Source: a virus (Duplodnaviria; Heunggongvirae; Uroviricota; Caudoviricetes). Taken from it: a stretch of 33,460 nucleotides of DNA. The stretch is taken from positions 1 through 33,460 of the IMG/VR virus record IMGVR_UViG_3300027852_000034. The stretch is one strand, 5' to 3'. Of this stretch, positions 23,384 to 29,855 are shown piece after piece (position 1 is the first letter of the stretch; every line of letters begins with the position of its first letter). The translations under genes were made by a program, and so were the position numbers. The notes below the pieces were generated by a model, which was not told the origin of the DNA, did not search any database, and saw only the letters and a program-made list of their open reading frames with translations.

Positions 23384-23677
23384 GATCCCTGTAGAGGCTG
23401 GCAACCTTATATAGATCGAACACAGATCAAAGGCACACCCATCCATGCATCATGGTACGACCGGTACACCTCTATTTTAGATCATCTTCAGATCATCAGA
23501 TATAATACAGATCATACTTAGATCATTAATAGGTATAACACAGGTATGATTCGCAGATCTTCTTAGATGTAGATATACAAGTGTAGTAAGGTTCAAAGTT
23601 TGAAAGGTTGTGTCCATACCTATGGATATACCTATGGATGCCTATACCTTGTGAACATCAGTAGATCAGGATAGATC
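23384..23677. repeat. non-coding YAGATC-rich tract
   Basis: 10 GATC sites, all in a YAGATC context, several 10-11 bp apart. Confidence 0.7.
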
Positions 23678-23864
23678 AATAGGTATGTGGGTAAAAGGTG
23701 TGTAGGTATGCGGTATGTGGCTGGGAGGGGATAGGTATATGGTAATCTGGATACCAGATGCGGGTATGCGAGTATAGAGTTTGTAAATATAGATCTGATT
23801 ATTAGGTATATAGTAAGAGTAGGGTACGCAATATGTATAATATATAAGTCCCAGTTGAGGGCCA

Positions 23865-24120
23865 TTTGCTAGATGTCGAGCATTTGAGTATGCTCCCTCG
23901 TAAAAAAAGTGCGCCGTGAATTAGAATATACTAATATACTATATTAGAAGATACTATTATAGATATTATTTATTGACAATTTTGGTCACTTTCTGACAAT
24001 TTTTGGTATCGGTAACTAATTGATTTTATTGAAGTTTTTTAGAATGTGACAATTTTGGTCACATTTTGGTGTTTTGCTAGATGTCAAGCACTTTTAACTC
24101 GTTGATTTTATTGACAATTT
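23865..24120. promoter_or_regulatory. cluster of protein-binding sites: two TGCTAGATGTCRAGCA dyads, TGACAATTTTGGTCA dyads, two IHF consensus sites
   Basis: Dyad A at 23867-23882 and 24075-24090; dyad B at 23974-23988 and 24046-24062 with partial copies at 23994 and 24112; WATCAANNNNTTR at 24013-24025 and 24095-24107 (minus strand). Confidence 0.7.
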
Positions 24121-24124
24121 TTTT

Positions 24125-24140
24125 TGGCACGGAATCTGCT
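24125..24140 (+). promoter_or_regulatory. sigma54 (RpoN)-like -24/-12 promoter
   Basis: TGGCACG-GAAT-CTGCT versus consensus TGGCACG-N4-TTGCW, with GG/GC spacing intact. Confidence 0.55.
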
Positions 24141-24221: not shown

Positions 24222-24722
24222 ATGAACACCGATCTCAAAATCAGACTAGCAAACATCAATTTATACGCCGATAAGATTGGCTATGCTGGTGTCAAAAAGT
24301 GGCCTAATGGCATGATGTCTACTGCTTCATTACTTGGTAGCGCACTCAAGCGGCCAGCCCATGTTAATGCTGAAAATGCCAAGAATATTCTTGACATCTT
24401 GAAAAGTGGCATATCCATCCCTGAACCAATGGCACAACAGATAAAAAAGGTTTTCAATTGTGCCGTTACTGATTGGAATACTGCCGCTATCTTAGCATTC
24501 CGGCATCCCAGAAAAATCAGTCAAACCCTGCCAAGGGTAGGAAAGGCGGCAACTGCTCTATATGCAGAACTTGCACACCATGTAGACATGACACACCATA
24601 GAACAGCCAAGACAGAACTTGAGCGCCCTGTTCACTTTGCCGACTTGCTTGCCAAGCGTTTGGAGCGTGACAAGAAACCAGCTCCAACAACCAAGAAACG
24701 GCCAGCTAAGAAAACAGCATAA
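24222..24722 (+). CDS. 166-aa basic protein, paralog of 25877..26410, K/P/A-rich tail
   Basis: Shared blocks LKIRLAN, WPNG, LLGSALKRPAH, LAFRHPRKISQTLPRVGK; AAGGA RBS. Confidence 0.85.
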   Translation: MNTDLKIRLANINLYADKIGYAGVKKWPNGMMSTASLLGSALKRPAHVNAENAKNILDILKSGISIPEPMAQQIKKVFNCAVTDWNTAAILAFRHPRKISQTLPRVGKAATALYAELAHHVDMTHHRTAKTELERPVHFADLLAKRLERDKKPAPTTKKRPAKKTA

Positions 24723-24735
24723 CCCACAACCACAC

Positions 24736-24753
24736 TGACACAGGGACGTGTCA
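24736..24753 (+). promoter_or_regulatory. CsrA/RsmA-type ANGGAN hexaloop hairpin
   Basis: TGACAC-AGGGAC-GTGTCA. Confidence 0.5.
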
Positions 24754-24772
24754 CCACACAGGACAAGCCAAC

Positions 24773-25000
24773 ATGAAAAACTTACTCACCAGCAACAAAC
24801 CATCCATTGACGTATTAGTTCAATATGTAGATAGAGATTTTAAAGGCCAGCAAGTTATGTTTCTTTCTAATCAAGTGGATTCTATCCGCAATGCATACCA
24901 TGAACTCAAGCGAGAATTAGCAGAACAAGGTGGATTTATCACCCGTTCAGAACTCCGCTATAATGGTAAACTTTACTATGTTGGAATCATCGGCCACTAG
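24773..25000 (+). CDS. hypothetical protein, 75 aa
   Basis: CAGGA RBS; followed by a terminator. Confidence 0.7.
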   Translation: MKNLLTSNKPSIDVLVQYVDRDFKGQQVMFLSNQVDSIRNAYHELKRELAEQGGFITRSELRYNGKLYYVGIIGH

Positions 25001-25021
25001 TCACCACATAAGCCACTATAT

Positions 25022-25049
25022 AGCCCATGCCACTTGGTATGGGTTTTTT
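25022..25049 (+). terminator. intrinsic terminator
   Basis: AGCCCATGCC-ACTT-GGTATGGGTT-TTTT. Confidence 0.75.
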
Positions 25050-25051
25050 AT

Positions 25052-25067
25052 TGCTTGATGTCTAGCA
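25052..25067. promoter_or_regulatory. third copy of dyad A
   Basis: TGCTTGATGTCTAGCA, immediately after the terminator. Confidence 0.55.
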
Positions 25068-25280
25068 CTGTGTCATGTGCTGTATATATCTTATATAACA
25101 CTGTGTAGTGCTGTGTAAGCTGCGCTCTATCACTGTGCTATGTACTAGTATCACTACACTATGATCTAAGCACACAACGCACTACAACACGTCTGGTCTG
25201 CTTAGTCTCTGCTGTATGCTGTGTACTGTGTGCTCTCTGCTATGTGCTGCATACCCTGCTCTGTGCTGCTCTCTGCTGTG
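25066..25280. repeat. polar CTG/GCTG-rich low-complexity tract
   Basis: About 19 CTG and no CAG on the plus strand by manual count. Confidence 0.6.
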
Positions 25281-25611
25281 TACTCTCATGCTATAACGCT
25301 ATATAGCAACCCCGTATATACGCCCCTTATATAGACCCTTATATAGACCCTGCTCTGTGGCAGTTACTACAGTAACCCGTATTCCTTACAAATCGAAATA
25401 GAGTCCCCTTGATCTCAGTTACCCTTATATATGGACCCTTTAAAATCTACCTTGGATAGGAGTTACTATTAAGACCTTGATTCCTTACAGATCAAATAAC
25501 CCATATCCAAGATCAGAAAGCGCCTCCTCCGGAGTCTGAAACCTGAGGAGTTACCTGTCAAGCCAAGATCCCATACAGATTGGATTTAACCTTACCTAAT
25601 CCATGGATCCC

Positions 25612-25798
25612 TGATCTAGGTCACGTAACCTTGGATATCCATGGCTAGATTGGAATACAATGATCTAGGTCATAGGAATCGTGGTTATCGGGAATTAGAT
25701 CGAGATGCAATGATCTGCCTCATAAAAACCTAAATATAAGGTTTAGATTAGGATGCAATGATCTAGGTCATTAGATTAGTTATTATCCATGATTAGAT
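25612..25798. repeat. four ~49-bp degenerate tandem units, each starting with the near-dyad TGATCTAGGTCA
   Basis: Unit starts 25612, 25661, 25711, 25759 (49/50/48 bp); shared TAGAT-N4-ATRCAA-TGATCT. Confidence 0.75.
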
Positions 25799-25841
25799 TC
25801 CTCCCTTTTAGTTTCCATGGATATACAGAGCCCTTAAAGAA

Positions 25842-25859
25842 CAGCACGTCCATGTGCTG
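25842..25859 (-). promoter_or_regulatory. CsrA/RsmA-type hexaloop hairpin, possibly also a terminator
   Basis: Minus strand CAGCAC-ATGGAC-GTGCTG-TTCTTT directly after the stop of the 177-aa gene. Confidence 0.5.
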
Positions 25860-25876
25860 ATCTTATTGCGTCTCCT

Positions 25877-26410
25877 TTACGCAGACTTTGCAGCTACCTT
25901 CGCTACAGTCTTAGCAGCCTTCTTAGGCGGCCGTGCTGTACGTGGGGCCTTTGGCTTGAGAGATGCCGCATACTTAGCCACGTATGCTGCGGGATCTTCA
26001 ACCACGTTAAGCTGCTTGTTCATTGTGCCCTTACGATGGGCTTCGAACTTGAGAGCTGTGCAGATCTTCGCATACAGATCAGTAGCCTTCTTTCCACGAC
26101 GGGGAAGGGTCTGAGTGATCTTGTTCGGTACACGAAATGCAAGGACTGCTGAGAGATTCGTAATGGAAGGCTTCACCTTGAAAACCTCCTGAAACTCTGC
26201 TGCCAACTCCTTGTTGACCGCTACAGTGTTCTTTGCAAGACGCTTCAGAATCTCGTCTGCGTTCACACCGTTTGGATGTGCTGGACGACACAATGCAGAA
26301 CCAAGCAATGCGGATACTGAGGACAAGCCGCGAGGCCAGGACTTAACATCTACCTTCCACTTGGATGCTGCGAGGTCCAGATTAGCTAAACGTACTTTTA
26401 GTGTTGCCAT
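25877..26410 (-). CDS. 177-aa basic protein, paralog of 24222..24722, histone-H1-like tail
   Basis: LKVRLAN, WPRG, LLGSALCRPAH, LAFRVPNKITQTLPRRGK; tail KPKAPRTARPPKKAAKTVAKVAAKSA; start re-set to ATG 26410 (AGGAG RBS). Confidence 0.85.
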   Translation of the reverse strand: MATLKVRLANLDLAASKWKVDVKSWPRGLSSVSALLGSALCRPAHPNGVNADEILKRLAKNTVAVNKELAAEFQEVFKVKPSITNLSAVLAFRVPNKITQTLPRRGKKATDLYAKICTALKFEAHRKGTMNKQLNVVEDPAAYVAKYAASLKPKAPRTARPPKKAAKTVAKVAAKSA

Positions 26411-26450
26411 AATCATCGTCTCCTGTGACGTTGGTATCTGTAGCAAATTT

Positions 26451-26517
26451 GCTACTATATATAGTATATAACAACCATCCTGAAATACAAGCTAATCTTG
26501 GTGCTATTATGCAAATT
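26451..26517 (-). promoter_or_regulatory. bipartite early-type promoter motif, copy 1
   Basis: AATTTGCATAATAGCACC-N23-GGTTGTTATATACTATATATAGTAGC. Confidence 0.7.
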
Positions 26518-26687
26518 CCTACCGTATCCTGATCTAGGTCAATACTCTAAATCTATACCATGGATTGCCCATGATTAGGTATTTGGGCATAGGTTGGATA
26601 CACCTATCCATGGAAAGAGGGGAAAGGTAAAAAAGGACTGTCACTACAACAATCCTGATTAATTATGATTTAAACCTTAGATTCGTT

Positions 26688-27213: not shown

Positions 27214-27333
27214 CTAAATCAATCTAAGGGAGTAGATATGGGCAAGCCATCCTGCCACAAATCCTATAATAAAATATATAACCGACAACGTTAACAACTC
27301 TCGATGCGTACAAGGATCTTTGTGATCACTCAT
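27214..27333 (-). CDS. 39-aa membrane peptide
   Basis: ATGA overlap with the upstream gene; LLTLSVIYFIIGFVAGWLAHIY TM; not in the ORF track. Confidence 0.55.
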   Translation of the reverse strand: MSDHKDPCTHRELLTLSVIYFIIGFVAGWLAHIYSLRLI

Positions 27334-27560
27334 TTTACCAGCTCCTTTAATTCTTTCTTAATACGCCTTGCATCTTCCCCACGCCAGCTACCTGCATTGC
27401 TGAGGAAGTACAACACAATACTCTTCCCACTGTCATAACCATAGTTGTCAGTGATTTTAGTCAGACTGCCCATAGCTTCTAGATATGTTTCAGCAGCATA
27501 GTTAACCTTAGACCATGTACCTCTGATCTCTGTTGCTATCGTGTGTATTGGTCGTGCCAC
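27330..27560 (-). CDS. phage hypothetical protein, 76 aa
   Basis: RPIHTIA.EI...W..YL.AM..YG.DSGKSIVLYFLSNA..WRGE.ARRIK.EL; I recall this as a widespread phage hypothetical. Confidence 0.8.
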   Translation of the reverse strand: MARPIHTIATEIRGTWSKVNYAAETYLEAMGSLTKITDNYGYDSGKSIVLYFLSNAGSWRGEDARRIKKELKELVK

Positions 27561-28978: not shown

Positions 28979-29188
28979 TCAATAAGATCGAAGGAGATCT
29001 ATTATGTCAGACTTAAAACGAAAGATCATGGAGCTGGTTGAATCATACTTCAGGTGTAGACTAAAGAACCAAGGTATACGTACCTGCCTTATCCAGGTAG
29101 CCAAGGGTCTATTGACTAAGTCATAATCCATGGGCATATGATTGGCGCAATACTTTATGCAGTAGGCCCTATCCAATCTATTAAACAA
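28979..29188 (-). CDS. possible hypothetical protein
   Basis: TTG-start ORF with no clear RBS. Confidence 0.35.
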   Translation of the reverse strand: MFNRLDRAYCIKYCANHMPMDYDLVNRPLATWIRQVRIPWFFSLHLKYDSTSSMIFRFKSDIIDLLRSY

Positions 29189-29244
29189 CTAGACTAGACT
29201 ACACCAATACCTATTGGTGTAGATTAGTTACTGCCTTGGACACA

Positions 29245-29410
29245 GATTCCTTACAGATCATGATTAGGTGTACTCAGTACCTGCCCATGGACATTGAGTA
29301 TACCTATCCGTGATCTTGGACATAGATCAACCCAACCCAATGATCTTGGACGTTGACTATACCTAATCACAGCCATGGCACAAGATCATGATCAGGATTA
29401 TCCATGATCC
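29245..29410. repeat. GATC/CCATG-rich tract with TGATCTTGGAC repeats
   Basis: 7 GATC; TGATCTTGGAC at 29311 and 29341; GATTCCTTACAGATCA identical to 25479-25494. Confidence 0.65.
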
Positions 29411-29855
29411 CTGTGGTTGGGTCATACACGGTGTCAATCCATATAGTGGGCCCAATTCTGTGTTTTTCTATGGTTTTCTGTGTTTTTGGGCCCTATACAG
29501 TCATATTTACCTATATATGGACAATCTTTGCTATAATCTGGGGAATCTAACGAAATGATCTGATATAGACTACATTATGATCTTATTCTTATACCTTATA
29601 ATCTTACAACATATACCTATACAACTAAACCCTATACTCCTTGATCTTATATACAGTCTCACATACTCTACTACAACGAATATAAATAAGAGAGTATGAT
29701 CTATATAGAATCTACTACCCTTATACTCTCATTACTCATACTACTAATACTCTAGAATTACCGTTCTTACTCTTCTTTACTTGTGGAATCATTAAATCTT
29801 TTAATCTTGTGATTGTTCCCATTCAGGATAGATATCAGAATCTATAATCGGTAAC

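Follow-up and report, generated by a model that had tools for sequence, protein, structure and literature searches.

Why would a phage keep two related, strongly basic proteins whose genes converge on about 800 bp of repeat-rich non-coding DNA, and what might these proteins do there? The question is raised by the IMG/VR viral record IMGVR_UViG_3300027852_000034, a contig of 97,460 bp from a marine metagenome that is rated 74% complete, and whose first 33,460 bases were analysed here (the window; positions refer to it unless the contig is named). The two genes, which we call A (24222–24722, plus strand) and B (25877–26410, minus strand), are convergent, and an earlier note made from the letters of the window alone had proposed that together with the DNA between them (the platform) they form a candidate new module, in which DNA- or RNA-binding proteins act on the intervening repeats. 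Judged by comparison with a single related genome, A, B and the DNA between them make up a single conserved module under selection. As for its function, we favour the reading in which A and B would be early proteins that bind DNA and act on the platform repeats, and perhaps also on a satellite patch nearby, in a DNA-level process; we infer the binding, the target and the process alike, and give this reading a probability of roughly 0.3.

Two convergent paralogs and their orthologs in a second phage

The A gene encodes a 166 aa protein with an isoelectric point (pI) of 10.2, in which a helical core (residues 1–125) is followed by a C-terminal helix and a basic tail rich in lysine, proline and alanine, while B encodes a 177 aa protein with a pI of 10.4. 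The start codon of B is the ATG at 26410, which is preceded by AGGAG; a TTG at 26446 is unnecessary. BLASTP aligns the two proteins at 47% identity over 124 aa (E 3e-33), which together with the convergent coordinates bears out the paralogy of two facing proteins claimed in the earlier note; the 97,460-bp record contains no further copy. A word-index search through 5.8 billion proteins returned a sole relative (P0002), an ortholog of B at 70% identity. It is present on two JGI contigs, L003 and L004, but L004 repeats part of L003 at 99.98% identity and the module is therefore represented by two independent genomes in total. L003 displays, in order, the B ortholog, about 800 bp of non-coding DNA, two small open reading frames (ORFs) and, convergent to the first gene, an ortholog sharing 70% identity with A, and this arrangement is kept though the neighbouring small genes are rearranged. 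Since the orthologs (about 70%) are closer to each other than the paralogs (47%), the duplication came before the divergence of the two phages. When the window is compared with L003, the proportion of non-synonymous differences (pN) is 0.20–0.21 for both genes, far below the proportion of synonymous differences (pS), which reaches 0.80 for A (saturated) and 0.53 for B (nearly saturated), and both genes are thus real and under purifying selection.

The motifs quoted in the earlier note are invariant in the alignment of the four sequences, whose invariant columns are 22% basic versus 2% acidic. The lysine-, alanine- and proline-rich tails described there are equally present and occupy the final 16–28 residues; they have in common a conserved motif, K-x-x-A-P-x-T-x-K/R, which makes them more than a compositional bias. 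Basic character is not limited to the tails: in both proteins the pI is about 10 in core and tail alike, with a net charge of +8 to +12 in the core and of +8 to +11 in the last 40–50 residues. From these values and the overall pI of 10.2–10.4, nucleic-acid binding by A and B is plausible. Histone H1-like tails of this composition are found in the bacterial proteins Hc1, AlgP and mycobacterial HupB. A and B resemble these in being basic proteins with a C-terminal extension rich in lysine, alanine and proline; they differ in that their tail is short, holds its own single motif instead of a repeat array and is attached to a core without an HU or linker-histone match by Pfam. A dedicated look for the linker histone and Hc1 domains gave no Pfam family for either protein at E up to 1.

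Base composition also sets the stretch apart. In a 300-bp profile, a GC island of 0.40–0.50 extends from the start of A to the start of B, spacer included, between flanks of 0.33–0.38. B has the highest GC and the highest GC at third codon positions (GC3) among the ORFs of at least 150 aa in the genome (GC3 0.50 versus a mean of 0.27, standard deviation (sd) 0.06), while A has a GC3 of 0.42. The proposal of a candidate module is upheld by this island, which coincides exactly with the stretch from A to B, by the layout kept in L003 and by purifying selection on the genes and on blocks of the non-coding DNA. For a phage, such constraint on non-coding DNA is unusually strong.

What A and B are related to was addressed by sequence and structure. 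No family was found for them in Pfam (E up to 1), PHROGs or NCBIfam, and a profile search of the PDB sequences gave no match at E up to 10. A hidden Markov model (HMM) search of 1.84 billion cluster representatives recovered the two L003 orthologs plus two long low-complexity proteins, the latter rejected as spurious by hhalign (probability 11%) and Pfam. Scans of viral and metagenome contigs that used peptide patterns as well as three conserved DNA patterns yielded no additional members. A and B are an ORFan family, absent from the databases searched beyond two metagenomic phages. The earlier note had suggested structure prediction followed by a Foldseek search; AlphaFold models were obtained (predicted local distance difference test, pLDDT, about 70) and show a core of about 125 residues that is entirely helical, followed by one more helix and a disordered tail, but no fold was found above noise for either model with Foldseek against PDB, BFVD and AFDB clusters or with shape and feature searches of the ESM Atlas. 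A wide VIA-align search gave best Z scores of 4.7 for A and 3.5 for B. The former is with the ribosomal protein bL20, whose C-terminal domain superposes on model A over 56 residues (root-mean-square deviation 2.9 Å) and on model B with a Z of 2.8, both below the noise level of the tool for helical proteins; the N-domain of RAD51C scored at most 4.0. Individual domain classes were likewise negative. Neither ParB_N nor HTH_ParB is matched in A or B by Pfam, and the true ParB of the genome is another gene; WH1–WH2 winged-helix Rep domains have no match in Pfam or NCBIfam, both models being all-helical; and no helix-turn-helix family was detected with Pfam or NCBIfam. A helix-hairpin-helix was considered for the segment TLPRxGKxAxxLYA, which resembles one, and was rejected, since the glycine is gone in the L003 ortholog of B and there is no Pfam match to this class. 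The statement of the earlier note that no family is recognisable thus stands after all sequence and fold searches, with relatives in L003 only. Small basic binders next to repeated sites are as such a familiar kind of system; what is new is the protein family.

The repeat platform and its possible use

All the spacer features that the earlier note had listed, namely a CTG tract, 12-bp repeats and a 49-bp array, are located between A and B, and a fourth class of repeat adds to them. Reading along the plus strand, the platform opens with a polar CTG/GCT-rich tract (25090–25300) that contains 17 CTG and 0 CAG, the highest CTG count of the genome for a window of that size. TATATA boxes follow (25292–25351) and contain tandem repeats of CCCTTATATAGA, 3.3 copies of which lie at 25311–25351; the 12-bp repeats between A and B read TATATAGA. 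The additional class is a two-box repeat, AGTTAC-N19-TACA(G/A)AT, which lies on the plus strand throughout, with three good copies (25362–25393, 25461–25492 and 25549–25580) and a degenerate fourth near 25419. The third good copy is part of the longest conserved non-coding block (25519–25592, plus strand), 74 nt that are 82% identical to L003 and also include a CTCCTC/GAGGAG hairpin. The platform then continues with an array of four units (25609–25772, plus strand) with periods of 49, 50 and 48 bp, each carrying the near-dyad (A)TGATCT(A/G)(G/C)(G/C)TCA(T), that is, ATGATCTAGGTCAT or a variant. The dyad ATGAYCTAGRTCAT is shaped like the target of a dimeric DNA-binding protein, and it forms a regular 49-bp array in both phages.

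Aligned with its counterpart in L003, the platform is 55% identical overall and contains blocks of 22–74 nt at 78–83%, which correspond to a terminator tail with a 17-bp dyad, the TATATA core, the 74-nt block, the dyad units and the hairpin of B. L003 keeps the repeat classes, their order, the four units of the array and the 19-nt gap of the two-box repeat. The conserved block CCTCCTCCGGAGTCTG is a candidate handle for searching for further platforms. Whether homologs elsewhere also flank repeats, a check proposed in the earlier note, can be answered for L003, the sole relative found, which keeps the layout; the databases searched hold no further homologs.

The description of A and B as flanking the repeats holds insofar as they bracket them in both phages, but the same repeats also occur outside the pair. 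A second non-coding patch (29190–29480, plus strand) holds one two-box repeat (29226–29258, gap of 20 nt), CCATGG words and two copies of TGATCTTGGAC; the patch is embedded in the leftward block of early genes and is conserved block by block in L003 (1080–1400). An isolated exact dyad, TGATCTAGGTCA (26530–26541, plus strand), is found upstream of the B promoter and is not conserved there in L003. Because of this patch and this dyad, the repeat vocabulary belongs to a region of about 6 kb and not to the spacer alone. GATC and CCATGG are concentrated in the platform and in neighbouring non-coding patches. We also observed that GATC reaches 8–10 per 500 bp at 23384–23700, 25500–26000 and 29000–29500, against a genome mean of 2.1 (sd 1.9), and that half of the CCATGG sites of the contig fall in three of these GATC-rich non-coding bins.

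How could such a platform be used? In the reading that we favour, A and B are taken as nucleic-acid binders, most likely of DNA, whose helical core would give specificity while the tail motif would add contacts to the backbone or groove. They would load on the dyad array, on the two-box repeats or on both, and form a nucleoprotein complex that marks the DNA, possibly for use as an accessory replication or priming site, or as a centromere-like or organising site, either being favoured over a packaging site. CTG and GCT are the recognition triplets of primase in Escherichia coli and T4. The one-stranded CTG/GCT tract, the TATATA boxes, the spaced dyads and the presence of two clusters 3.7 kb apart would fit an accessory origin or priming site. 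If A and B do bind the platform, the few known origin, centromere and organiser systems of phages would be joined by one whose protein family, and possibly fold, is new, and two proteins with about 800 bp of DNA would make a compact and testable model.

Two groups of known systems invite comparison. Initiator-plus-iteron origins are represented by lambda O with its ori, P4 alpha with ori and crr, and the Rep_3 plasmids. The likeness lies in a binder gene next to repeated sites, in two clusters about 3.7 kb apart as for ori and crr of P4, and in a CTG/GCT tract that could serve primase; the differences are that A and B are without a winged-helix Rep domain, that no AT-rich unwinding element is conserved and that a true Rep_3 gene is located elsewhere. 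Tandem-repeat centromeres with dispersed copies are known from sopC/SopB of the F plasmid and from phage N15. Here an array of 43–49-bp units with short dyads, single dyads nearby and a genome-encoded member of the ParB family are in common, whereas ParB domains are absent from A and B, the parB-like gene has no ParA beside it, the contig has no canonical parS and the array has four units.

Several observations weigh against A and B acting on the platform. No DNA- or RNA-binding fold or family was recognised in either protein, and the AlphaFold models were built on four sequences only, with a mean pLDDT of 71 for A and 70.5 for the core of B. The genome has a Rep_3 initiator, and its orphan ParB could equally bind the dyads. 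The second patch, with the same two-box and dyad repeats, has no paralog beside it. The AT-rich stretch to the right of the array is deleted in L003, leaving no conserved unwinding element. Lastly, the module is present in two genomes only, and its co-conservation is therefore weak evidence for a functional linkage.

The paralog-free patch would also fit a different picture, in which A and B are general early proteins of host takeover or of a chromatin type that coat or compact DNA non-specifically, or bind host nucleoid proteins, while the platform is an independent element placed where two transcription units converge. Both genes are among many small early ORFs for which no function is known, B stands under a common early promoter, the whole of each protein is basic and the high GC3 fits high expression. 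A precedent is T4 MotB, which two articles present as an early non-specific DNA binder (PMC6070864, PMC7827196), a small basic early protein that likewise sits amid small dispensable-looking genes. MotB, however, has no sequence or fold relation to A and B, which are two paralogs with distinct control regions that bracket repeats. Long-kept diverged paralogs under different control suggest distinct specific roles, the GC island takes in both genes and the spacer as a single unit, and the A/B arrangement is syntenic in L003 despite rearranged small genes. We consider general coating somewhat unlikely. Were it correct, the locus would be an ordinary ORFan pair beside a separate cluster of cis elements.

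Control regions, terminators and 3′ hairpins

The two genes have different upstream regions. That of A (23866–24090, plus strand) displays the dyad TTGCTAGATGTC(G/A)AGCA at 23866–23882 and again at 24074–24090, with all copies conserved in L003. A palindrome, TGACAATTTTGGTCAC, is also present in two copies of its (G)-prefixed form (23974–23989 and 24047–24062), which are kept in L003 as well; the column identity over the whole region is 83%. A third copy of the dyad, TTGCTWGATGTCWAGCA (25051–25067, plus strand, conserved in L003), lies just past the terminator of the A operon, which is thus bracketed by three copies of the same 17-bp dyad. Closer to A, the element TGGCACGGAATCTGCT (24125–24140, plus strand) resembles a sigma-54 -24/-12 promoter (GG-N10-GC), with one mismatch to the consensus, and is the sole such match in the window. 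Its GG and GC doublets are conserved in L003, although TACTAT behind TGC also reads as an extended -10. Since matches to TGGCAC-N5-TTGC with up to 2 mismatches are expected 2.8 times per window by chance, it is conservation alone that speaks for TGGCACGGAATCTGCT.

B is preceded by a promoter that we read as an early class for the host sigma-70 polymerase, and which is the bipartite motif of the earlier note. It consists of a TTGT-like -35, a 17-nt spacer, TATACT and then TATATAG (26439–26491, minus strand), and its core is conserved in L003; the leader that follows contains the palindrome GTAGCAAATTTGCTAC. The same motif fronts many genes on both strands of the contig, with a ribosome-binding site of the CACAGGAG type 25–35 nt later. 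Further examples, usually with a leader hairpin, were seen at 26455, 27080 and 28910 (minus strand) of the window and at 39230, 44113, 45710 and 51400 (plus strand) of the contig. The earlier note had placed A and B under promoters of different class; the difference between the upstream regions is confirmed, while functional promoter classes are only plausible. A and B are likely to be differently controlled.

Such a density of sites around A might instead mean that A and B are transcription regulators, and that the surrounding non-coding DNA consists of operators, promoters and terminators for an early-to-middle switch. The three dyads bracketing the A operon, the second palindrome present twice upstream together with the sigma-54-like element, the promoter-like TATATAG cores inside the platform and the dyad that lies about 80 bp upstream of the likely start site of B are all in line with this. 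Four dyads and three or four two-box repeats between terminators nevertheless exceed the needs of a control region, the dyad upstream of B lacks conservation in L003, for which reason we also rejected it as an activator site of B, and no helix-turn-helix family was detected in either protein. We regard regulation of this kind as quite improbable.

Downstream of A on the same strand, a 75-aa ORF (24773–25000, plus strand) shows poor conservation, with 32% identity to its counterpart in L003, and an intrinsic terminator of the plus-strand unit (25022–25045, plus strand) is formed by a 10-bp stem and a T-run. On the opposite strand, an early-promoter-like core, GTTATATAAGATATATA with CTTAC upstream (25083–25125, minus strand), points leftward into this terminator and the 75-aa ORF; an antisense transcript from this type of core is possible, and the core is conserved in L003.

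Both genes are followed by a hairpin with an A-N-GGA-C loop, as the earlier note had described. The hairpin after A (TGACAC-AGGGAC-GTGTCA, 24736–24753, plus strand) begins 13 nt past the stop codon and has a 6-bp stem, the loop AGGGAC and, in the window, no U-run. That after B (CAGCAC-ATGGAC-GTGCTG, 25842–25859, minus strand), 17 nt past the stop, has a 6-bp stem, the loop ATGGAC and a U-rich tail, and doubles as a terminator. A scan of the 97 kb for stems of at least 5 bp around A-N-GGA-N found nine, against about six in shuffled sequences, and only these two have perfect 6-bp stems. Their common 12-nt core, CACA-K-GGACGTG, is shared though the proteins are 47% identical, and it is kept in L003. 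There the B hairpin is identical over 18 nt, whereas the A hairpin shows a compensatory change of T-A to G-C at the outermost stem pair and the loop AGGGAA; U-runs follow both hairpins. A hairpin inherited with the gene duplication points to post-transcriptional control.

Set against the known CsrA/RsmA hairpin consensus, both sequences match the pattern, with GGA in the loop of a short stem and the context CA-N-GGA-N-G. Rfam searches at E up to 1 gave only sub-threshold matches at chance level, among them a weak RsmV-like one for hairpin A (15 bits, E 0.4). According to one report, CsrA recognises GGA in hairpin loops (PMC13443453), and the short stem, GGA hexaloop and sequence context of the A and B hairpins resemble those of the CsrB/RsmZ type. 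They differ in their position 13–17 nt past stop codons, which is not that of a ribosome-binding site or of a sponge, and in that both double as terminators in L003.

These hairpins raise the possibility that the module works at the RNA level. The two-box repeats would then be promoters for plus-strand non-coding RNA made of 49-nt hairpin units, and A and B would bind such RNAs or their own 3′ hairpins; alternatively, the 3′ hairpins would be CsrA/RsmA sites, which would agree with the recognition of GGA loops noted above. The persistence of CACA-K-GGACGTG at 47% protein identity and the compensatory stem change both fit. Furthermore, the plus strand of 25585–25870 folds better than shuffled sequences (z -3.35; -5.1 for the L003 counterpart; -2.2 for the minus strand), and some stems use G-U pairs that are possible on the plus strand only. 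Yet a folding signal is expected from the GATC palindromes, no Rfam family is above threshold, the two-box motif matched no verified promoter class and the resemblance of A to bL20 (Z 4.7) is below noise and falls to 2.8 with the second model. Plus-strand GGA density exceeds the genome mean by only about 2 sd, and the excess on the minus strand stems from the palindromes GGATCC and CCATGG, on which grounds the platform was rejected as a CsrA sponge. An RNA-level module appears quite unlikely to us.

In a bolder reading, A and B would be the founders of a previously unrecognised family and fold of nucleic-acid-binding proteins in phages, a diverged pair working on a multi-repeat platform of its own and on a satellite site at a distance of 3.7 kb. 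Such a pair would organise replication priming, segregation or the chromosome, and a conserved RNA hairpin with a GGA loop would be linked to each of the two genes. We hold this reading to be unlikely.

Genome setting and neighbouring features

The layout of gene directions places the A/B module at the junction of a rightward and a leftward unit that converge: leftward genes occupy 1 to about 21.6 kb and 25.9 to about 33 kb, and between these blocks a short rightward island is found at 21.7–25.0 kb. In one DNA read run, from the probable source sample, the contig is continuous across the region, without variants or joints of interest. Searches of 50,697 phage records by tblastn and megablast gave no match, and none of these records resembles the region as DNA. 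The window encodes a ribonucleotide reductase, a thymidylate kinase, an SbcC-like protein, a primase and QueE/QueD-like proteins, and the remaining contig a family-A DNA polymerase, a DnaB-like helicase, SSB, a UvsX-like recombinase, a ligase, and a clamp with its loader, as well as a DpdA-like transglycosylase, Ro60, the Rep_3 initiator and the ParB-family protein. The DNA polymerase is only 34–36% identical to that of the nearest cultured phages, whose hosts are Edwardsiella and Vibrio. The Rep_3 initiator gene, with Rep3_N and Rep3_C domains, lies at contig positions 54668–55612, apart from A and B. The orphan ParB-family gene (ParB_N and HTH_ParB, E about 1e-29) is at 64390–65226 of the contig on the plus strand (L006 10930–11766), where it adjoins the gene for GTP cyclohydrolase I and the deazaguanine genes.

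Two further observations concern the surroundings of the module. The contig L004 (L003 1475–6629) starts where the second repeat patch borders on it and stops at the distal border of the platform, so that both of its assembly breaks fall at repeat-rich patches. Finally, a 76-aa protein encoded at 27330–27560 (minus strand) and assigned to phrog_13953 (function unknown) is 60–69% identical to proteins of Mycobacterium and Gordonia phages, a striking level for a marine phage that is otherwise without close cultured relatives.

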